Shown: positions 22,861 to 34,702 of the stretch, one piece after another
Layout of the letters: the number at the start of each line of letters is the position of its first letter
How positions within the stretch are numbered: position 1 is the first letter of the stretch
Assembly: GCF_016026235.1 (NCBI RefSeq)
Contig: NZ_CP065613.1
Length of the DNA stretch: 64,000 nt
Source: Escherichia coli
Lineage (GTDB): Bacteria; Pseudomonadota; Gammaproteobacteria; Enterobacterales; Enterobacteriaceae
Direction: 5' to 3' (one strand)
Made by a program: the position numbers and the translations under genes
Notes under the pieces: model-generated
Told to the model about the DNA's origin: nothing
The model's input: the letters and a program-made list of their open reading frames with translations, nothing else
Databases searched by the model: none

Positions 22861-23553
22861 TCAGAAGAAATACTTCGTCCCGATACGAATCTGGTTTTGC
22901 TCGCGGTGGTACGGTTCCACGTTGCGATCTAACCAGCGCAATTCAATATAGGGCAGCCAGTGCTCGTTAATGCGGTAACGGAAGGTGTTAGTGATTTCCC
23001 AGTGATGCTTCGTGCCATTGCCGCTATTGAAATCATTAATGTTATAAAAATAATGCGGCTCAAAGGTATATGAGAACTTATCGGTAATAATAAAGTTCCA
23101 GTAGTTGCCAATCTCGTAGCTGTCATTATTATCCAGATCACCGTTTAAATCGGTTGAGCTGTAGTTATTATGGTTAAAACGGTTGCGTACTGTCAGGTTA
23201 AACCACGGAGTAAATTTGTAGTTAACATCCAGATAAACAGCACCACCCGAACCGATACTCTTATCATTAATTAAGCCACCGGGCTGGATGGTTAATTTAT
23301 CGGTTGGTTTAAATAACGGATACCAGCCTTCAATTTCGTTATATCCATGTTTAAGTTCATCTTCTCGCTGAAAGGTGTAGGTATTGGTTAACATAATACC
23401 CGCGCCCATATCGAAGTTATAACCCACACGTAGCATAACCTCGCCCTGATCGGAGGCGAGATTATATGCCTCCCTGTTTTCGACGTATGCGCCAGCGAAT
23501 ACTGAGGCAGAGGTCAGAGAAGATAATAAAATTATTGCATTAATATTTTTCAT
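22861..23553 (-). CDS. ompL: outer membrane porin OmpL
   Basis: ORF 22861..23619; start taken at MKNINAIILLSS signal peptide; beta-barrel with C-terminal KYFF. Confidence 0.85.
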   Translation of the reverse strand: MKNINAIILLSSLTSASVFAGAYVENREAYNLASDQGEVMLRVGYNFDMGAGIMLTNTYTFQREDELKHGYNEIEGWYPLFKPTDKLTIQPGGLINDKSIGSGGAVYLDVNYKFTPWFNLTVRNRFNHNNYSSTDLNGDLDNNDSYEIGNYWNFIITDKFSYTFEPHYFYNINDFNSGNGTKHHWEITNTFRYRINEHWLPYIELRWLDRNVEPYHREQNQIRIGTKYFF

Positions 23554-23619
23554 AATAAGTCCATTTTTAAACGTAGGGAGGCCGCCACCCACCAGGATGG
23601 AAATAGCGGCTATTGACAT

Positions 23620-25023
23620 TTATAACGTTACGGAAGCCGTTTTTTCTTCTGTCGCCATCTCTTTATTTTTGCGTTGGTTGATTTCCTCAATAATCAACGC
23701 AAACCGTTTTTCATTGAGTGTGTAAAAGAATCCCATCGTCAATGCAGCAATAATTGCCAGTGCACAAGGCCAGATAAAAATGAGCTGACGCAAACCCTGT
23801 AATGTCGCATCACTTTGCGCGATGTTGGGAACATAACCGATTTGCGTCAGCATAATGCCTGGCAAGAAGCCAGCAAGTGCGGCAGAAATTTTACGAAAGA
23901 AGGTATAACCGGTATAAACAGAACCTTCGGCACGAATACCGGTTTTCCATTCACCGTAATCTACGGTATCTGGCACCAGTGCCCAGTTCAGGCTGTTTAC
24001 AAAGGCCGTGCCAAAAAAGGCGATACAAGAGAACATGACGAAAGTGAAAGAGTTACTTCCCCAGAAATAATTCAGGATATCACCCACTGCCCATAGCACC
24101 ATGCCAGCTAAATAAACCTGTTTTTTACCAAAACATTTTACAGTTAATGGCACCAGTAATACGCCGATGAGGATGCATCCCATACTGAAGAATCCCATCC
24201 ACGACAATAAATTAATATCATTCAGCACATACTGGGTGTAATAGACCTGAATCGCCAGTTTGATATTAAATGCCGCCAGGGTACACAAGTTAGCAATGCA
24301 TAAAACCAGCAATGGCGGATTCCGAAATATCGCGCAAAATGATTTGAGAATACTGGCTTTATGTCCGGTTGGTGCTGTGTCCACATAATGCTCTTTGACG
24401 CCTCTGTAGCACAGCATCATAAAAATAAAGCCACCAATGGAGAACATCAGTGCCGCACAGGCATAACCGACGGTTGAGTCAGAAAAAAGCGACTGCAACG
24501 GAATAAACGCCACGGTACAAATCAATAGCCCTATGGTTGCACCACCCTGGCGGTAAGCCGCGAGCTGCGCGCGCTCATTCGGGTTTTTAGTAATGGCTGG
24601 GATCATCGCACCATACGAGCAGTTCATCAGACTGTATGAAAGTCCAAACATCATAAACAGCGCGGTGGCAATCGTCGTTTTAACCGGCAAACTAAAAGTG
24701 GTGGCGATAAACTGGAGCGTTGCAATTAACGCCGCCGGAACCGCTGCGTATAAAATAAAGGGACGAAATTTGCCTTTAGGCCCAATATTTTTCCGCGAAT
24801 CGAGTAAAAATCCGGTGAGCATATCGGTAAACGCGGTAAAAAACTTCGCCACCAGAAAGATAATCCCGCCATAGTAAGCTGGCATCCCTAATTCATCGGT
24901 ATAAAATTTGAGGAGATACAGAGTACCGATGCTAAGCATTAAATTCGAACCAACGTCGCCCATACCATAGGCGATTTTTTCCCGCAGATTCAGTTTTAAT
25001 GTCAGTGGATTATGGTCAGACAT
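23620..25023 (-). CDS. yihO: GPH-family sugar (sulfoquinovose) transporter YihO
   Basis: ORF 23620..25029; 12-TM Na+/melibiose-type permease; paralogous to adjacent yihP. Confidence 0.88.
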   Translation of the reverse strand: MSDHNPLTLKLNLREKIAYGMGDVGSNLMLSIGTLYLLKFYTDELGMPAYYGGIIFLVAKFFTAFTDMLTGFLLDSRKNIGPKGKFRPFILYAAVPAALIATLQFIATTFSLPVKTTIATALFMMFGLSYSLMNCSYGAMIPAITKNPNERAQLAAYRQGGATIGLLICTVAFIPLQSLFSDSTVGYACAALMFSIGGFIFMMLCYRGVKEHYVDTAPTGHKASILKSFCAIFRNPPLLVLCIANLCTLAAFNIKLAIQVYYTQYVLNDINLLSWMGFFSMGCILIGVLLVPLTVKCFGKKQVYLAGMVLWAVGDILNYFWGSNSFTFVMFSCIAFFGTAFVNSLNWALVPDTVDYGEWKTGIRAEGSVYTGYTFFRKISAALAGFLPGIMLTQIGYVPNIAQSDATLQGLRQLIFIWPCALAIIAALTMGFFYTLNEKRFALIIEEINQRKNKEMATEEKTASVTL

Positions 25024-25065
25024 AATCACTCCTTATAACGCCCCGCAGGGCATTGTTTATTATTA

Positions 25066-26451
25066 TTACGCCGTGCGTTTACGGGCTTCTATTTCTTCAA
25101 CAATGCGGACATACATCTTCTCGTTCAGGCTGTAGAAGCAGCCCATCGCCACAATGGTGACTACCGCCAGTGCGCTTGGGTAGATGAAGATCAGCTGGCG
25201 CAACCCTTCAATGGTGTGGTCAGCCTGCGCCACGTTCGGCACATAACCGATTTGCGTCAGCATCCAGCCGGGGAAGAAACCAGCCAGCGCCTGAGACACT
25301 TTGCGAAAGAAGGTGAAGCCGGTGTAGACCGTTCCTTCCGAACGAACGCCGGTACGCCACTCGCCGTACTCGACGGTGTCGGAAACCAGCGCCCAGTTCA
25401 GGCTGTTAACAAACGCTGAGCCGAAGAATGCCAGGCAGGAGAACGCCACGAAGCTGACCGAACCGCCGCCGAAGAAATAGTTGAGCAGATCGCCCAGCAC
25501 CCAAATCAGTAGGCCGCCGATATAGACCTTCTTCTTACCAAAACGCCTGACTGCGCCAGGCATCAGGAACACACCGATGAAAATACAGCCCATGCTGAAA
25601 AATCCCATATATGACAACAGGATGGGATCGTTAAGCACGTACTGGGTGTAATAGACCTGAATGGCGAGCTTGACGTTAAACGCCCCTAAAGTGCAGAGGT
25701 TGGCAATGCACAAAATGAACAGTGGGCGGTTACCGGCAATTGCGCGGAAAGATTGCAACAGGCCTGGCTTTTGCGCCGGATTGGTAGGTTGGGTTTCGAC
25801 ATAACGCTCTTTCACGCCCGAATAGCAGATCCACATAAACAGCAGGCCAAACAGTGAAAACAGCGTGGCGGCGAAGATATAGCCAAGTTGTTGATTACCC
25901 TCGATAAGATTCATAACCGGCACGAATCCCACCGTGCACAGCAGCAGGCCCAGCGTAGCGCCGCCCTGACGCCATGCTGCCAGCGAGGCGCGTTCGTTGG
26001 GGTTTTTGGTAATGGCGGGAACCATTGCGCCGTAGGAGCAGTTCATCATGCTGAAAAACAGCCCGTAGAGCATAAACAGAATAGTGGCCATCACCGTTTT
26101 ACCAGTGACATCGAACGGTGTGCCGATAAAGTTAGCGATTGCCAATAAGGTGACCGGGAATGACGCGTACAAAATGAAAGGGCGGAACTTACCTTTCGGG
26201 CCAATCTTACGCCGGGAATCCAGCATGATGCCGGTTCCCATATCGGTAAAGGCGGTAAAGAATTTCGAGATCAAAAAGATAATGCCGCCATAGGTGCCAG
26301 GTAGCCCCAGAACGTCGGTATAAAACTTCAAAAGATAAAGCGTACCAATATCCAGCAGGATGTTAGAGGCCAGATCGCCGATACCGTAAGAGAGTTTCTC
26401 TTTAAAGGGCAGGCGCAAAGTTGCCGGATCTTCCGTTGTGATGTGACTCAT
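25066..26451 (-). CDS. yihP: GPH-family transporter YihP
   Basis: ORF 25066..26484; strongly similar to YihO (e.g. IGTLYLLKFYTD, IGPKGKFRPFILYA); exact start uncertain. Confidence 0.85.
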   Translation of the reverse strand: MSHITTEDPATLRLPFKEKLSYGIGDLASNILLDIGTLYLLKFYTDVLGLPGTYGGIIFLISKFFTAFTDMGTGIMLDSRRKIGPKGKFRPFILYASFPVTLLAIANFIGTPFDVTGKTVMATILFMLYGLFFSMMNCSYGAMVPAITKNPNERASLAAWRQGGATLGLLLCTVGFVPVMNLIEGNQQLGYIFAATLFSLFGLLFMWICYSGVKERYVETQPTNPAQKPGLLQSFRAIAGNRPLFILCIANLCTLGAFNVKLAIQVYYTQYVLNDPILLSYMGFFSMGCIFIGVFLMPGAVRRFGKKKVYIGGLLIWVLGDLLNYFFGGGSVSFVAFSCLAFFGSAFVNSLNWALVSDTVEYGEWRTGVRSEGTVYTGFTFFRKVSQALAGFFPGWMLTQIGYVPNVAQADHTIEGLRQLIFIYPSALAVVTIVAMGCFYSLNEKMYVRIVEEIEARKRTA

Positions 26452-26496
26452 CGTTATTCTCCATTTGCCCGTGAGTTTCCCCACGGGCGGGCATGA

Positions 26497-28533
26497 TTAG
26501 ATGTTTTTTAACGAGGCGAACAGTGCAGCCCATTCGCTGTCGGCGCGATAAAAGACCGGCGGCTTGCCGATGGGCGCTTCAACAGTTATTTCTCCACCGT
26601 GGAAGGTTTCTCCGGTCCAGGCGTGGACCCAGTTATCCTCTGGCAGATAGAGCGTCCAGTCGCTACGACCTTCTTCGTGTACCGGAGCAACCAGAATGTC
26701 GCGACCTAACAGGTACTGATATTTCAGGGAATAGGTCTGCGCGTCGTCTTCGTAATGCAGGAACAGCGGGCGCATAACCGGCAGGCCGGACTTCGCATTC
26801 AGCGCGACGGCCTCTTTCAGGTAAGGTTTCAGGGTGGTGAAGACGGTGGTCATACGGGCGAAATGGGCGATGGTTTCCGCGTCGCCGTCAAACTGCCAGT
26901 TGTCGCTAGGACGGTTACCTTCGTGGGTGCGCATCATCGGCGTGAAGGCGCTGAAATCGCACCAGCGCAGCAGCAGCTCTTTGCTGCGCTTCATCTCAAA
27001 CAGGGTGGTATAACCGCCAATGTCGCTGTGATGCAGGCCATGTCCGGTCATTGCCAGAGATAGCGCCGCCGGGACAACCGACGCCAGGCCATCGTCCAGA
27101 CTCCAGTCCACGTTCTGGTCACCCGCCCACATCATGGTGGAGTATTTCTGGCTACCGGTAGAACCGGCGCGCATAAAGAAGAGGATCTCGCCGAGCTTGC
27201 CCGTTTCTTCAAGGGCTTCGTAGTTACATTTCGCCCACAGCGCGGGCCAGGCGTTATGCATAATTTCCGCGCTGATGCCGTTATGCAGGTACGTGTCGGT
27301 GGGCAGATACTCGCCGAAGTCAGCCATCCAGCCGCCGCAGCCGAGTTCAATCATGTTCTTTTTGATAACTTCCTTGAACTAGGCGTAGGCTTCCGGATTG
27401 GTGAGATCGACAACGCCGCCGTAGAACTCGCCAAACTCCACCAGATAGTCGCCACCGGCGACATCTTTTGCCAGATAACCGCGCTTTGCCGCCTCTTCGC
27501 AGAGATCTTTATCACTGGCAACATACGGGTTGATATAGGCAAGGAACTGCACGCCCTCTTTGTTCCACTGCTTGATACGCGAATCCAGTTGCGGGTAGTT
27601 TTCGCTGTTCCACTTCCAGTTCCACATCACGCGTTTGCCAAAAGAGGTCATACGAATACCGGACCAGTCCTGCGCCCAGATGCCGTTGACCTTCACGCCC
27701 GCGTTACGCATGGTGTCCAGTTTCTTCTGGCACACTTCCGTCCCGCCCTGAATGCCGAGCGTTACTCCGTCATAAATCCAGTCGGGCAGTTCTGGCTGGC
27801 GTCCCAGCAGGGCGGTTAATTTTTCCAGCAGGGAGATGTATGTGTCAGCACATTCAAAACGCAGCGTTGCTTTGTCTTCCCACAGCGCCAGTTCATGGTA
27901 TTCTGGGGCACTAAAGTCGAAGTTCATATAGCAACTGTTATCAACATGGCAGTAATACTTCTGCGTGCTGACAAACGTAGGCTGTGGGAAGAAAGTCCAG
28001 TAATAGTCGCCGCCCGCATTTTCTTTGCAGTCGGCCTGCCAGGTGACATAGGTTTGTTTGTTGCGACCAACGCCTTGTTCACTGGTCCATAGCGGGAACG
28101 GTTTGCCACGCAGATCGAAGTAGGAAAACTGTTCGCCGCAGCCGTAGATATGGTCCTCTGGTTGAGCGGCAAGGCGCAGCCAGATACGGTTGTGGTTAAG
28201 GTTGTCGTTTTGTAGTTCCAGCAATAAACGGCCCTGATCGTCGGCAGAGATATTCAGCGTGGCGCTAATGTCAGAACCACGGCTGAAATGGATTAACCAA
28301 CCATCCGGCGACTGGCTGACGATGGCGTCGGTAAGCGCAATTTTCTCCTGTAGTTTATCTTTAATGCTGAAATTGCCGCGGAACATATCGATATCCGCAA
28401 TACCTGAACCAATCCATAAACAAGGATTATCTTTGCTATGGGTTAAAATAAGACGCTGTTGAAAATGTAGGGTAAAACTGTCGTTATTCTGATGAAACTG
28501 AAAATCTGGTAATTGTGGGCGTGGCGTATCCAT
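26497..28533 (-). pseudogene. yihQ: sulfoquinovosidase yihQ (GH31 alpha-glucosidase family) interrupted by in-frame amber codon at 27379..27381
   Basis: two ORFs (27379..28533 and 26497..27354) lie in the same frame separated only by TAG; flanking translation ...LTNPEAYA*FKEVIKKNMIELG...; total length 678 codons equals intact YihQ. Confidence 0.8.
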
Positions 28534-28641
28534 AAATAATCTCCATAGAGTATAAAGCTAATATTTCATGCCATCCTGTTGTTACAGGTTTCATTAATTA
28601 AAGAATGTGGTGCTGGTATAAATTAAAACCCGCATAAGTGA

Positions 28642-29517
28642 TTATTTACTTTCTTCAGCCCGGCGGATTGCCGCCACTTTTTTACCAAATGCCAGTTGCA
28701 GTATAACTAACAAGGTAAAAGGAGGCAGAAGCGCGGCAGCAGCGGGAATTCCCAGCGCGCCTTTTATCAACATAGAACCGGAGGCAATCAGCAACAAAAA
28801 GACCATCACACGGAACACTTTGACTGAAATGCGTTTATGCACATATTGTCCAACCAGTGAACCGAGGATCATGGTGGGAATACAAAACAGCACCAGTTTA
28901 AAGATAGAAACAGTCAAAATTCCGCTGGTCGCCAGCCCGCCGATCACCGCGATGTTGTTTGCGGTGAAGAAAGCGTTCAGAGTGCCACGAAATGCCGCCG
29001 GGCCTAAGTTACGCAGCATACCGTAGATAACCATCGGCGGTCCGTTGGTTGAAAACGCTGCCCCTAACGCTCCTGCCACAGCGCCGATAGGTGCGGCGAT
29101 CCAGTTGCGGTCATAAATCGGCAGGCGTGGAATAAACATACTGTAAAAGGAGTACAGGATAAGGAATCCGCCTAAGCCCACTTTCATAAAATGGTCGGGT
29201 AAATATGACAGCGCATATAAACCGACGGGTATTCCCAGAAACGAGAAAATAATCAGTACCATTGCCGATCGCCAATCCGTTTCTTTACGTGACAGCCAGG
29301 TGGCGTACAAGGCGGTCGCGGTGCCGACAATCACCGAGAGCGGAGTTGCCATTTTTACGGGGAGCATTAACGTGACGAGCGGCATGGTGGTTAAACCACC
29401 GCCAAATCCCGCGCATATCCCCACAAAGGTATAAAGAAACATTAACGCGATAACGATACATACCACGTTTGTTTCCAGCATGACCCCATCCGGTGAAAAT
29501 AACGTAAAAAAGTCCAT
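28642..29517 (-). CDS. TauE/SafE-family (DUF81) membrane permease, putative sulfonate/sulfite-type anion exporter
   Basis: 291-aa polytopic ORF with glycine-rich motifs typical of TauE family (GFGGGLTT, GAVAGALGAAF); lies between yihQ and yihR. Confidence 0.7.
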   Translation of the reverse strand: MDFFTLFSPDGVMLETNVVCIVIALMFLYTFVGICAGFGGGLTTMPLVTLMLPVKMATPLSVIVGTATALYATWLSRKETDWRSAMVLIIFSFLGIPVGLYALSYLPDHFMKVGLGGFLILYSFYSMFIPRLPIYDRNWIAAPIGAVAGALGAAFSTNGPPMVIYGMLRNLGPAAFRGTLNAFFTANNIAVIGGLATSGILTVSIFKLVLFCIPTMILGSLVGQYVHKRISVKVFRVMVFLLLIASGSMLIKGALGIPAAAALLPPFTLLVILQLAFGKKVAAIRRAEESK

Positions 29518-29577
29518 GATATTCCCTGTTGTGTAAATACAACCCTAAACAATGATCTCGTTCTTTTCTTAATAAAA

Positions 29578-30480
29578 TTAATTGTGCTGCCCGTAAATAT
29601 TAAAAAACAGGCGGTGCGTTTTCCCTGGTTCCAGTAATAATAAGTCGAGACCTGAATTAAAGGCGTTAGGTGGGCAACTCATAGGTTCAACTGCCAGTCC
29701 CTGACGCTGTAATTTTTCGCCGCTATAAATCTGCACCCAGGGTTGATCGGAACAAAGGCTTACCGAAAGCGCCTGTTGTGGATGGGTAATGGTTATTTCC
29801 CACAGATCATTAGCGGTTTTAAAGGTGTGGTCGATTTTTGTCGCGGCTATTTTTTTCGCCTGCGTGAAATTTAAATCCAGCTCATCAACGTGGTGAAGCG
29901 TTGTCGGATTAGCGTGCTCATCGACGGCATAAACCTGGTTTGCCGGAAGCTGGAACAGATATTCATCAACAGATGTTAAGTTGCAGGTTAAATAAGGATG
30001 AATACCCACACCATAGGGTGCGGTCACAGTACCAATATTCTGACTTGCGATCTCAACGGAAAGACCCGTGCGTGCATTGAGCGAATAAACAACCTGCGAA
30101 GCCAGCATAAACGGATAGCCGTAACTGGGCGGCAGAAAAGCTGTCAGGGTAACGCTGGTGGCGGTTAATTCGCTGATTTGCCAGTCACGCCAGGCGAGCA
30201 GCCCATGAATAGCGGCTTTTGAACCATGTTCATTAATGGGTAACTGATATTCCTGCCCCTGATAGCGATAACAGCCGTTGGCGATCCGGTTCGGCCACGG
30301 AATAAGGACTTTGCCCAGATGTGCCAGCGGCATCTCTTCGGGTTTATGCGGAATAACTAAATGACAGCCCTGAAAGGTTAATTCAGCCAGACCTGCACCG
30401 ACGGTCACAATGGTCGCGTGATAATCCCCCGCGGCAAGTGAAACGGTCTGTCCACTGCAATGCATGTTGGTGATTTGCAT
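29578..30480 (-). CDS. yihR: aldose-1-epimerase family protein YihR (sulfoquinovose mutarotase)
   Basis: 300-aa ORF, galactose-mutarotase-like; synteny. Confidence 0.85.
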   Translation of the reverse strand: MQITNMHCSGQTVSLAAGDYHATIVTVGAGLAELTFQGCHLVIPHKPEEMPLAHLGKVLIPWPNRIANGCYRYQGQEYQLPINEHGSKAAIHGLLAWRDWQISELTATSVTLTAFLPPSYGYPFMLASQVVYSLNARTGLSVEIASQNIGTVTAPYGVGIHPYLTCNLTSVDEYLFQLPANQVYAVDEHANPTTLHHVDELDLNFTQAKKIAATKIDHTFKTANDLWEITITHPQQALSVSLCSDQPWVQIYSGEKLQRQGLAVEPMSCPPNAFNSGLDLLLLEPGKTHRLFFNIYGQHN

Positions 30481-30548
30481 ACGAGGTACCTTTATTGAAT
30501 AACGACATACCCGGCGTGCAGCCTGATATGTCGTTTTTTGTTAGTCAG

Positions 30549-31790
30549 TTATTTCGCGTTAATATCCAGCAGACCCGCCGCAACTGCCGGAGCCAAGCCT
30601 GGCGCTAACGGGATACGCGGGATCACCAGGCAATGCAGCAGGTGATAAATATCCTGTTTGCCGTCCCAGACTTTGGTGGTGACCTTATTGTCCGCATCCA
30701 GCTCCTGCCACCAGGAACCATTTTCATAGTCCATCAGGTACTTAATGCAGTACTCCCACCATGTTTGATACCAGGTTTCATACTGGCGATCGCCAGTGAC
30801 GGTGTAGAGCGCGTAGGCCGTACCCATTGCTTCGACGATAGGCCAACGTACACGTTCGCGGACCACCGGTTTTCCTTCCCAGTCAACGGTATAAACAATC
30901 CCGTCCGCGCCATCGGGTGCCCAGGCATCGCGCACGGTGGCGTTAAACAGACCTTTGGCATCTTCTAGCAGCCATGCTGGTGGTTGTTCGCAACGGGCTT
31001 CCAGGGCAGCATGGATGTGCAGCATTAAACGGCCCCATTCGATCCAGTGGCCTGGTGTACCTCCGAACGCGCGGAAGCGATGCGCCGGGTTATCTTTGTT
31101 GTAATCCGGCAGCGGATTCCACTGGGTATCGAAGTGTTCGTTAACGCGATAATGATTATTTCTGGCGACGTCGTGGATAATCACGGAAGCCACGCGAATC
31201 GCGCGATCCAGCCATTTTTTGTCGTGAGTGACGTCATAAACAATCAAGAAAGCTTCCACCGCGTGCATATTGGCATTGCCGCCGCGGTACTCTTCGGTTT
31301 TGCTGAAGGCTTCGTCCCAGGATTCCAGGCACATCTGCTCTTCTTCGCTCCAGAAATATTTCTCGATAATTTCAATGGTGTAATCGAGCAGCTTGCGCGC
31401 TTCCGGGTGACCCGTTGTGACGGCGCTGGCGGCACCCAGCAGAGCAAAGAAGTGTTGATAGCCCTGTTTGGAGGCATCCACCACGCCCTCGTCATTCACG
31501 CAGGCATACCAGCCGCCATATTTTTTATCACGCAGTGCGCCGTTCATGGCTTTGATACCGTGATCAACCAACGAGTAAGCGCCAGGTCGACCCATCGCCG
31601 CAGCAACGGAATAAACGTGCAACATACGAGCGGTGATCCACAGATGGGTGCCCATCTCTTCTTTGATTTGCCCTTTATTGCCTAACCAGCCAAAACCAGT
31701 CGGCACTACGGAATTTTTACCAAAATCAAAGATGCGGTCGGTTTCCTGTTCCAGCCAACGGTTGTGGCTTAGGGTGTTAAACCATTTCAT
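30549..31790 (-). CDS. yihS: sulfoquinovose isomerase YihS (N-acyl-glucosamine 2-epimerase fold)
   Basis: ORF 30549..31805; start approximate. Confidence 0.88.
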
Positions 31791-31806
31791 TCCTTTTATC
31801 CTCATC

Positions 31807-32685
31807 TTAGCGGCGTTTAGCCATCATTTCGTCGACGATATCGCCAAGTTGTTGTAATTTCGGTGCGCAAACGTCACGCAGCATCAGCTCGTTGTCTGGT
31901 AAACCGACGACCGATGCCCAGACTGCACGGCCTGCCAGGAATCCCGATGCGCCCGCCGTCATTGCCACGCGTACGGCACGCGGGAACAGTTTTTCGTCGA
32001 CACCGGAAGAGAGGATCACCCATGGCATATTGATATGGTCATTCAGACGTTGTGAAGCACAGAGAAGCTCTTGTTGCGAACCTTTGCCATAAAGCGGCAT
32101 TTCAACTTTGTAGAGGTCAGCGCCACTGTCGCCCAGCTCTTTGGCGGCATCGATGATCGCTTGTTCGCGATCGAATTTATCGCCACGACGCGGTGGGCGG
32201 ACGACTGGCTCAATGATGCTTACCAGACCGTGTGAGTGGCACAGTTCGTTGAACTCTCTCACCATATCCAGACGTTGCTGCGCATCTTCATCACTACGCC
32301 ACAGCACCAGCAGTTTTAAGGCTTTGCCACCGTCTTGTTTGATCTGTAGCGGATTGATTTTGCGGTCAATAACCACGCTATCGACCGGAATACCGTTGCC
32401 AGGAATGAACTCATCGGCGGCGACAATCATGGCGCAACTTTTGGCAATCGCGTTTTGCTCAACCACCTGGCGGTAGCAGAATTGTTGATCTACCAGAATC
32501 GCCGAGGCATAAGGCGAGAGGGCCTTTGCAGCGTTAACTTTGAAATCAGTTAAAACGCTATCGGCTACCGGAGCGGGTGCCCCAGCCGCGGCAAACATCA
32601 TGCGCATGGCTTCGCGCTGATCGACCGCCAGCATGGCAAAACCGCCCGATGCGCGCGTAATGTCGTTGATGGTGTACTTACTCAT
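31807..32685 (-). CDS. yihT: 6-deoxy-6-sulfofructose-1-phosphate aldolase YihT
   Basis: 292-aa ORF, class I aldolase (tagatose-bisphosphate aldolase-like). Confidence 0.88.
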
Positions 32686-32708
32686 TCATTTATTCCTTTA
32701 TCCAGTCG

Positions 32709-33605
32709 TTACATTTTTACTTTGGCAGTCATCCCGGCACTGACACGGACCTGTTCCAGAATGGCGGACCAGTCCTGGCGACCGCGACCCGCTGCGCGCG
32801 CCTGGCTATAAACCTCCCGTGAGGCGGCCCCCAGCGGCATTGGCACATGCAGCTGGTTGGCGACATCAAGGGCGATGCCAAGATCCTTATGGGCAAGATC
32901 GATCATGAAGGCGGGAGAAAGATCTCCGCTGAGGACTTTGTTTGGCCAGGAAGTGGTGAAGTGACCTTTACCGGCGGCGGTACCGCTCATCACTTTGACG
33001 GCAACATCGAAGGGAAGATTCAGGGCTTCGCACAAAACGGCGGCTTCTGCCGAAAGCGCATTGAGCGCGATGCTCATGTAGTTGTTGATGAGCTTAACGC
33101 GGATCCCCATGCCCGGACCGCCAGCGTTGATCAACTCACTGCCCATCGCCATCAGGATCGGTGTGGCACGTTCAACTTGTTCAGCGGTGCCGCCAGCCAG
33201 CAGTAACAGAGTACCGGTAATGGCATTTGCAGAAGTACGGCCTACCGGAACATCCATCATGCTGAAGCCTTTGGCTTGCATATCGGCAATCAATTTATCG
33301 GTTTGCAGCGGATGGATGGTGGACATATCAATGACCAGCGCATCGGTAGATAAGCCTTCGCAAACGCCGTTTTCACCGAACAACACGTTGCGCACCAGAT
33401 CGCCATTCGGCAACATGGTAATGATAAATTCGGCATCTTTAGCGGCCTGCGCCGGGTTGGCGGCGGGAGTCGCACCTTTGTCTACCAGATGCCGCACAGC
33501 TTCGGCGTTCACATCAAAGACGCGAAGTTGATGCCCTTGCTGCAATAAATTGCTCGCCATTGGCGAACCCATTTGTCCTAAACCGATAAACGCGATTGCT
33601 GCCAT
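32709..33605 (-). CDS. yihU: 3-sulfolactaldehyde reductase YihU (3-hydroxyisobutyrate dehydrogenase family)
   Basis: 298-aa ORF with N-terminal Rossmann motif [10 protein letters not shown]. Confidence 0.9.
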
Positions 33606-33772
33606 AACCCTCTCCTGAATACAGTGATGTCACTTTTTGTCATTTATGACATGCTTTTCTTGTCTGTTTTTGATCGTATTTGTAATTTATCGTCAAAAAA
33701 TTGACAGCCGTCACTTTTTAAACAATTGGTGAAATTAAAATGAACGCATCCCAAAATGTTTAAGGAATGACC

Positions 33773-34669
33773 ATGATTCGTGTTGCTTGTGTAGGTATAA
33801 CCGTGATGGATCGCATCTATTACGTGGAAGGGTTACCGACGGAGAGCGGTAAATACGTGGCGAGAAATTATACGGAAGTTGGTGGCGGGCCAGCGGCGAC
33901 GGCAGCGGTTGCGGCGGCAAGGCTGGGGGCGCAGGTCGATTTTATTGGTCGCGTAGGTGATGACGACACGGGCAACAGCCTGCTGGCAGAGCTGGAATCC
34001 TGGGGCGTTAACACCCGTTACACCAAACGGTATAACCAGGCGAAATCTTCGCAATCCGCCATCATGGTGGATACCAAAGGCGAGCGGATAATCATTAACT
34101 ACCCCAGCCCGGATCTGCTGCCTGACGCAGAGTGGTTGGAGGAAATTGATTTCTCTCAGTGGGATGTTGTGCTGGCAGATGTACGCTGGCACGACGGCGC
34201 TAAAAAAGCCTTCACCCTGGCCCGTCAGGCGGGTGTGATGACCGTTCTGGACGGGGACATTACGCCGCAGGATATCAGTGAGCTGGTGGCATTAAGCGAT
34301 CACGCGGCCTTTTCAGAACCGGGTCTGGCGCGCTTAACGGGCGTGAAAGAGATGGCCAGTGCGCTAAAACAGGCACAAACGCTCACAAATGGTCATGTCT
34401 ATGTGACCCAGGGTAGCGCAGGCTGCGACTGGCTGGAAAATGGTGGGCGTCAGCATCAACCGGCCTTCAAAGTTGATGTGGTAGATACCACAGGTGCGGG
34501 TGATGTTTTTCACGGCGCTTTGGCGGTGGCGCTGGCAACAAGTGGGGATTTAGCGGAGTCAGTCCGCTTCGCCAGCGGTGTAGCGGCGTTAAAATGCACA
34601 CGCCCCGGTGGACGAGCCGGGATCCCTGACTGTGATCAAACCCGATCTTTTTTGTCACTTTTTGTATAA
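33773..34669 (+). CDS. yihV: 6-deoxy-6-sulfofructose kinase YihV (PfkB/ribokinase family)
   Basis: ORF 33767..34669; PfkB signatures (DTTGAGDVFHGA). Confidence 0.9.
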   Translation: MIRVACVGITVMDRIYYVEGLPTESGKYVARNYTEVGGGPAATAAVAAARLGAQVDFIGRVGDDDTGNSLLAELESWGVNTRYTKRYNQAKSSQSAIMVDTKGERIIINYPSPDLLPDAEWLEEIDFSQWDVVLADVRWHDGAKKAFTLARQAGVMTVLDGDITPQDISELVALSDHAAFSEPGLARLTGVKEMASALKQAQTLTNGHVYVTQGSAGCDWLENGGRQHQPAFKVDVVDTTGAGDVFHGALAVALATSGDLAESVRFASGVAALKCTRPGGRAGIPDCDQTRSFLSLFV

Positions 34670-34702
34670 AATGCCAGGGTGATGGTATTTCGAGGAATTT
34701 TC

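Follow-up and report, generated by a model that had tools for sequence, protein, structure and literature searches.

Permeases of the TauE/SafE family (PF01925) have been assigned to the export of several products of organosulfonate breakdown. In the sulfo-transaldolase (sulfo-TAL) clusters for sulfoquinovose (SQ) degradation of the Firmicutes Bacillus aryabhattai, Enterococcus gilvus and Clostridium symbiosum, the family member SftE is listed as a 'predicted SL/DHPS exporter', for sulfolactate (SL) and 2,3-dihydroxypropanesulfonate (DHPS) (PMC7491151). A TauE permease has been assigned to sulfolactate in Arthrobacter (PMC8873060), others to 3-sulfopropionate (PMC11489063) and, where SuyAB occurs, to sulfite (bioRxiv 2023.08.01.551581), and the TauE-type protein SqwE to isethionate (PMC12890257). 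In Escherichia coli, DHPS export has been given to YihP, 'most likely' (PMC6278857), an assignment kept in a 2026 review (PMC12890257). Here, a 64,000-nucleotide stretch of E. coli DNA (contig NZ_CP065613.1 of assembly GCF_016026235.1, referred to as the window) was analyzed, in which a gene for a TauE/SafE-family permease, here called tauE, lies within the yih cluster of the sulfo-EMP (sulfo-Embden-Meyerhof-Parnas) pathway, between the sulfoquinovosidase gene yihQ and the SQ mutarotase gene yihR. Its contexts in E. coli and other bacteria suggest that it encodes a DHPS exporter, and that it is an ancestral part of the cluster that was lost in K-12.

Gut Enterobacteriaceae that break down SQ supply DHPS to bacteria that respire sulfite and produce H2S, which makes the exit of DHPS from the cell a real step in this food chain. 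An earlier note on this DNA regarded the export step as unassigned in the E. coli pathway, which does not hold, since the literature provisionally gives it to YihP (PMC6278857, PMC12890257). This sole assignment is a guess from K-12, which has a reduced operon, and tauE is a better a priori candidate; it poses a testable challenge to the assumption that YihP is the exporter, and introduces no new principle. Databases annotate the gene in generic terms only, and work centered on K-12 has passed it over. No mention of tauE in the SQ cluster of E. coli or Salmonella was found in the literature searched; the extended data of Denger 2014 (Nature) might show the gene. Comparisons of yih cassettes, for example the 2025 survey of long and short cassettes (PMC12608037), a text in which the words TauE, exporter and permease are absent, have overlooked this third structural variant.

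A TauE-family gene between yihQ and yihR

Positions 28534-29577, the interval given in the earlier note, make up the whole gap on the minus strand between the start codon of yihQ (28533) and the stop codon of yihR (29578). They hold a single open reading frame (ORF) of 876 bp (28642-29517), which begins with ATG, encodes 291 amino acids and is co-oriented with both neighbors, the last two points as that note had reported. A Shine-Dalgarno-like AGGG lies at 29524-29527, 6 nt 5' of the ATG. The encoded protein is identical to WP_000345434.1 of E. coli strain NCTC9699, annotated in RefSeq as 'sulfite exporter TauE/SafE family protein'. The ORF is a genuine gene and not a chance reading frame: a gap-free alignment of orthologs from twelve genera begins at residue 1, with a mean column identity of 85% and a conserved N-terminus (MDFFTLF), and dN/dS amounts to 0.05 among the alleles of E. 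coli (dS 0.10-0.12) and to 0.014 in the comparison with Escherichia whittamii. Its G+C (GC) content was correctly judged native, at 49.4% overall and 54.8% at third codon positions (GC3), compared with 42-55% in the neighboring yih genes and 50% in the window.

Membership of the TauE/SafE family, proposed in the earlier note from glycine-rich motifs, is borne out by a near full-length Pfam match (PF01925, E 4.7e-35) that places residues 23-248 on positions 2-235 of the 237-position model. The expected glycine-rich motifs are present (GICAGFGGGL at residues 33-42 and GAVAGALGAAFSTNGPP at residues 145-161) and conserved across 135 family sequences, with G37 invariant and F38, G39, P46, G145, G149, G152, G159, P160 and P161 conserved in at least 90%. 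An AlphaFold2 (AF2) model built from the 135-sequence alignment reached a mean predicted local distance difference test (pLDDT) score of 94.1 and a predicted TM-score (pTM) of 0.90; it supersedes a first attempt with 12 close orthologs only (pLDDT 41.6), which was discarded. The model contains two equivalent helix sets, spanning residues 16-128 (helices 16-36, 40-48, 54-75, 82-105 and 108-128) and 138-255 (138-155, 159-168, 173-198, 203-227 and 232-255), followed by a helix at 259-290. A fold search of AFDB50 with this model gave 2304 matches at E<=0.001, and the 50 listed are all named 'Probable membrane transporter protein', with TM-scores (normalized to target) of 0.60-0.98. The protein is accordingly predicted to be an inner-membrane secondary transporter of the TSUP family, with eight core helices in two four-helix repeats and a clade-specific ninth helix at the C-terminus; when the two halves were compared in a simple pairwise test, the sequence itself gave no sign of the repeat (z = -0.2). 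TSUP takes its name from TsaS, and E. coli YfcA is another member.

The relatives of TauE number 5632 at E<=0.001 in a library of 1.84 billion representatives at 50% identity, in which the entire SQ-linked orthogroup forms one cluster. Its nearest full-length relatives outside that cluster are about 240 residues long and 29-38% identical, and the orthogroup appears to be an isolated, SQ-dedicated clade of the family. A C-terminal extension (residues 255-291, window 28642-28755), which forms the extra long helix at 259-290 and ends in a basic tail, distinguishes the clade; it lies outside the Pfam model and is missing from the relatives of about 240 residues. Transfer of function from the nearest non-orthologs (P0127 and P0131, 36-38% identity) was considered and dropped, as both lie in unrelated neighborhoods. 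Among NCBIfam models there was no match to TauE, and hence no equivalog. The 90% protein cluster that contains the O157 TauE allele also lists members of 299-300 residues named 'aldose-1-epimerase', the size of YihR, with a representative of 300 residues, probably a clustering or naming artefact.

Cluster contexts and proposed function

A scan of 100,044 species-representative genomes, with loci mapped by tblastn using the Yih proteins of the window and sulfo-Entner-Doudoroff (sulfo-ED) proteins of Hafnia, returned 27 loci with 26 full orthologs (65-99% identity). Every one of the 26 lies inside a sulfo-EMP or sulfo-ED cluster, in one of three arrangements. The first is yihR-tauE-yihQ, as in the window, and the second is yihQ-tauE-yihP, present in Kluyvera, Citrobacter freundii, Pantoea ananatis, Atlantibacter and others. 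In the third, tauE is the last gene of a sulfo-ED cluster, as in Hafnia, Mixta, Leminorella, Edwardsiella, Buttiauxella, Enterobacter, C. amalonaticus, Vibrio owensii, Aeromonas cavernicola and Craterilacuibacter. These clusters encode a LacI regulator, an SSF symporter, a dehydratase (PF00920), an aldolase (PF03328), a mutarotase, a lactonase, a reductase of the beta-hydroxyacid dehydrogenase type (NAD_binding_2), an SDR dehydrogenase and TauE. Their Pfam make-up agrees with that of the published sulfo-ED enzymes (PMC9594981), and Hafnia, Leminorella and Vibrio had already been listed as having sulfo-ED genes (PMC7491151).

All ortholog clusters contain a homolog of sulfolactaldehyde reductase as well as an importer from a different family. 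Desulfonating enzymes (Xsc, SuyAB, glycyl-radical sulfolyase or monooxygenase) were found neither in the yih cluster of the window nor at the ortholog loci. TauE remains 76-82% identical from EMP to ED clusters, whereas the reductases are 30% and the mutarotases 24% identical, indicating that TauE tracks something common to both pathways and that the transporter has been exchanged between the two cluster types as a module. The candidate importers differ (YihO/YihP of the GPH/MFS_2 type plus the porin OmpL in EMP clusters, SSF in ED clusters), while the reductase, and by inference the C3-sulfonate product, are common to both. TauE is the sole transporter beyond the SSF symporter in the enterobacterial and Vibrio sulfo-ED clusters; YihP homologs are found in none of the Enterobacterales and Vibrio sulfo-ED clusters, and two are present at the Aeromonas locus. 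Because the module is shared across pathways, the importers differ, the reductase is constant, TauE is the only additional transporter, yihP is absent from some clusters and a single TauE apparently serves two adjoining clusters in some Enterobacter, these contexts point to a role at the output end of the pathway.

Two further cluster layouts were observed. In Lelliottia nimipressuralis (L020, 7900-12400) and an Enterobacter metagenome-assembled genome (MAG; L030, 7900-12500), the order is yihQ-tauE-yihO and the locus holds no yihP homolog, so that YihP cannot be the universal exporter. In an Enterobacter kobei-like genome and Enterobacter sp. ENT03 (L007 and L019, 1000-20800), the sulfo-ED cluster includes a mutarotase gene and tauE and directly adjoins a yih cluster from which yihR and tauE are missing; apparently, two alternative SQ pathways in one locus share a mutarotase and a transporter.

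These contexts make it probable, though well short of certain, that the TauE-like protein exports the C3-sulfonate end product DHPS. Of the two substrates named in the earlier note, DHPS is thus the one best supported by context, and sulfite the one disfavored by the missing desulfonating enzyme. In the proposed mechanism, tauE would be co-transcribed within an SQ-inducible, CsqR-controlled block running from yihU to ompL. Once inserted in the inner membrane, the protein would give the DHPS that the sulfolactaldehyde reductase YihU forms a way out of the cell, with the anion gradient or membrane potential as the presumed driving force; in relatives that also oxidize sulfolactaldehyde, TauE may export sulfolactate too. 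In K-12, SQ is reported to strongly induce the yih genes described along this block, yihU/T/S/R through yihP/O to ompL, and CsqR binds at yihU/V and at yihV/W (PMC12608037). A scan of the spacers between yihR, tauE and yihQ revealed no promoter-like or terminator-like site on the sense strand, which is only suggestive of co-transcription of tauE with the cluster. In K-12-type strains, DHPS would have to be exported via another carrier, for which YihP is the usual candidate. Since these strains manage without it, tauE is dispensable, and TauE would be an accessory that improves or specializes export, not an essential step; the purifying selection on the gene implies that it matters where it is kept.

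Several points weigh against a role in DHPS export. K-12 excretes DHPS without tauE, so the gene is not required for export (PMC6278857). Family membership gives no direction of transport, since the name-giving TsaS is an uptake permease, and no function can be transferred by homology because the nearest outsiders are at most 38% identical and occur in unrelated contexts. Searches of the PDB by sequence and by fold found no solved relative, the best match being BacA/UppP with a TM-score of 0.43-0.50 at E>0.001, treated as not significant. The role is drawn from gene context, and the product of the enterobacterial sulfo-ED clusters, DHPS or sulfolactate, is deduced only from a reductase of 30% identity.

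Among the other functions considered, a TsaS-like permease that takes up SQ, SQ-glycerol or another sulfonate as its substrate is unlikely. In its favor, TSUP owes its name to an uptake system (PMC8873060), and two of the three arrangements place tauE beside the gene for the sulfoquinovosidase. Every cluster has its own glycoside or sugar importers of other families, however, and these change from EMP to ED clusters, with TauE remaining 76-82% identical; moreover, K-12 imports SQ without tauE. Slightly less likely still is a relief valve or carrier for another pathway anion (sulfolactaldehyde, sulfofructose or sulfolactate), or a role unrelated to sulfonates. The substrates of TSUP proteins are poorly defined (PMC8873060), and in Hafnia the ED cluster has a gene for an aldehyde dehydrogenase beside it, a hint of sulfolactate as another possible product; as a conserved sulfolactate-forming step this candidate was rejected, because it is not conserved at the other ED loci. 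An unrelated role sits poorly with the strict association of all 26 orthologs with SQ clusters. The reading with the least to recommend it, which we consider highly improbable, is that of a strict sulfite exporter that removes the sulfite from desulfonation, although it is the one conveyed by the name given by the Prokaryotic Genome Annotation Pipeline (PGAP), and a reference cited in bioRxiv 2023.08.01.551581 describes the TauE of Cupriavidus necator as exporting sulfite. As no specific NCBIfam model matches, the name is merely the Pfam family label. DHPS is the end product of the sulfo-EMP pathway, which includes no desulfonation (PMC12608037, PMC6278857), and a sulfite substrate is unlikely because the ortholog-bearing clusters carry no desulfonating enzyme.

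The assignment of TauE to DHPS export can be extended to a broader proposal, which is held tentatively and with less than even confidence: this TSUP clade may have been the original dedicated DHPS exporter of gammaproteobacterial SQ pathways, shared by EMP and ED clusters as a module. The K-12 operon would then be degenerate, with YihO and YihP both importers (of SQ and SQ-glycosides), and DHPS would exit by a non-dedicated route.

Distribution in E. coli, the K-12-type junction and ancestry

As the earlier note stated, K-12 has no gene between yihQ and yihR: in a K-12-derived chromosome the two are separated by an AT-rich spacer of 198 bp without tauE. In blastn comparisons, homology between the window and K-12 ends at the yihR stop codon and restarts about 64 nt upstream of the yihQ ATG (28534-28597 shared). 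Between these breakpoints the window has about 980 nt with 47% GC, and K-12 has about 135-145 nt with 27% GC. No tauE remnant was detected in the K-12 spacer, as blastn at word size 7 and tblastn with TauE gave matches at chance level, and in Smith-Waterman comparisons of the K-12 filler with the window segment 90 of 200 shuffles reached the observed score. Because these comparisons are at chance level, the K-12 allele is best described as a replacement without a recognizable scar, in which tauE would have been taken out and an unrelated AT-rich spacer left.

A survey of 5426 complete E. coli genomes found tauE in 1282, O157:H7 included, and the K-12-type junction in 2516. The genomes with neither state mostly fit the 'short' yihTUVW cassette, which in Nissle 1917 lacks the yihQ-yihR region (PMC12608037). 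The presence or absence of tauE is a natural polymorphism in E. coli, and about one third of the strains having the long yih cassette encode it. The junctions vary in other ways as well: the yihR-yihS spacer is 137 nt in K-12 (L002, 4236-4372) and 68 nt in the window type (30481-30548), and BL21 has a further variant of the yihQ-yihR junction, which matches only 74% of the K-12 junction query.

Outside E. coli, the yihR-tauE-yihQ order is found in E. whittamii (99% TauE identity), Salmonella enterica (87%), S. diarizonae, Citrobacter sp. wls619 (87%), Mangrovibacter (85%), Superficieibacter (86%) and an Enterobacteriaceae MAG, and the ortholog is recorded on very many Salmonella contigs. The flanking Yih proteins of the outgroups have diverged about as much as TauE (85-87%); between Salmonella and the window, for example, identity is 87% for TauE, YihQ and YihT and 88% for YihU. 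The same slot in the outgroups, the matching divergence and a dN/dS of about 0.05 indicate that tauE is ancestral and maintained, and that K-12 lost it, in line with what the earlier note had suspected. The simplest history places tauE in the common ancestor of the Escherichia/Salmonella cluster, with loss in the K-12-type haplotype; the YihR C-termini of the outgroups fail to polarize the event.

The yih region is strongly mosaic. In 250-nt steps across 25400-32700, the window is between 86 and 100% identical to K-12; for E. coli, divergence reaching 10% is unusually deep. The yihS-yihT segment is 100% K-12-like and yihP, yihQ and yihR are 99-100% O157-like, while the tauE of the window is identical to that of NCTC9699 and only about 96% identical to that of O157. 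The deletion haplotype therefore probably spread through recombination and not simply by descent. Beyond the gammaproteobacteria, orthologs were observed in the alphaproteobacterium Azospirillum thermophilum (76% identity, AFDB A0A2S2CK91) and the betaproteobacterium Craterilacuibacter (65%, L031), which indicate cross-class transfer of the transporter.

The opposite polarity, a recent horizontal insertion of tauE into some E. coli lineages with the K-12 arrangement ancestral, could draw on this mosaic structure, on the movement of the orthogroup among cluster types and even classes, and on the species scan, which found no match among the Escherichia representatives other than E. whittamii. 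It is nevertheless very unlikely. Salmonella, Citrobacter, Mangrovibacter, Superficieibacter and E. whittamii have tauE in the identical slot, with TauE identity equal to that of the flanking genes. The GC and GC3 of tauE are native, the dS of 0.10-0.12 among E. coli alleles points to long residence in the species, and neither the sequence nor the blastn breakpoints revealed repeats or mobile-element remnants at the flanks.

Features of the locus and comparison with described systems

The cluster of the window has the order ompL-yihO-yihP-yihQ-tauE-yihR-yihS-yihT-yihU on the minus strand, followed by yihV-csqR on the plus strand. Its features are listed in Table 1.

Table 1. Positions of tauE and associated features in the window
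Feature	Position	Strand	Basis
tauE-like gene, predicted 291-aa TSUP/TauE-family permease	28642-29517	-	ORF, Pfam, AF2 fold, dN/dS
yihR-tauE spacer, 60 nt, 30% GC, carries the AGGG motif	29518-29577	-	sequence, scan
tauE-yihQ spacer, 108 nt	28534-28641	-	sequence, scan
Segment of about 980 nt swapped in K-12-type genomes for unrelated AT-rich filler	28598-29577	-	blastn breakpoints
yihR, sulfoquinovose mutarotase, upstream neighbor	29578-30480	-	
yihQ, sulfoquinovosidase, downstream neighbor, in-frame TAG inside	26497-28533	-	
Complete yih sulfo-EMP cluster	22861-35488	both	

The tauE-yihQ spacer contains a palindrome with perfect arms, CCTGTAACAACAGG (28575-28588), about 40 nt upstream of the yihQ start and kept in K-12 as CCTGTAATAACAGG, which might act as an operator or form an RNA hairpin in yihQ-yihP-yihO expression. 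In E. coli PK8277 (L043, 3728-4425), an IS1A element sits in the yihR-tauE spacer, with tauE otherwise identical to that of the window, and may uncouple tauE, yihQ, yihP and yihO from the upstream promoter.

The yihQ gene of the window is interrupted by an in-frame TAG at codon 385 (27379-27381, minus strand), giving ORFs of 384 and 285 amino acids; the corresponding codon of K-12 yihQ encodes Trp. In NCTC9699 and K-12-derived genomes yihQ is uninterrupted, with 678 codons. The exact 61-mer around the TAG occurs in one of the 5426 complete genomes, that of ERL04-3476 (pork, New Zealand), in which PGAP records yihQ as a pseudogene with an internal stop and the tauE allele differs from that of the window by 4 amino acids.

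With regard to described systems, YihP shares with TauE the operon and the proposed role in the pathway, as DHPS exporter, but belongs to an unrelated fold and family (GPH, MFS_2, glycoside symporter type), and its own assignment as exporter is only 'most likely'. TsaS of Comamonas testosteroni, likened here by description and not by sequence, is a TSUP protein with a sulfonate-related substrate; unlike the role suggested for TauE, its proposed function is uptake of 4-toluenesulfonate in an aromatic sulfonate pathway. The name-givers of PF01925, TauE of Cupriavidus necator H16 (a DUF81 sulfite exporter) and SafE (a sulfoacetate exporter), have the family, the glycine-rich motifs and the 4+4 helices in common with the protein of the window, but work with desulfonating or C2-sulfonate pathways, whereas the yih cluster encodes no desulfonation enzyme. 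SftE, compared by description only, differs in its pathway and hosts (sulfo-TAL in Firmicutes, as against sulfo-EMP and sulfo-ED here), and the enterobacterial clade has the additional C-terminal helix at 259-290. The two nevertheless belong to the same Pfam family, both are encoded in SQ clusters that end in a C3 sulfonate, and for both a role as product exporter is suggested by gene context.

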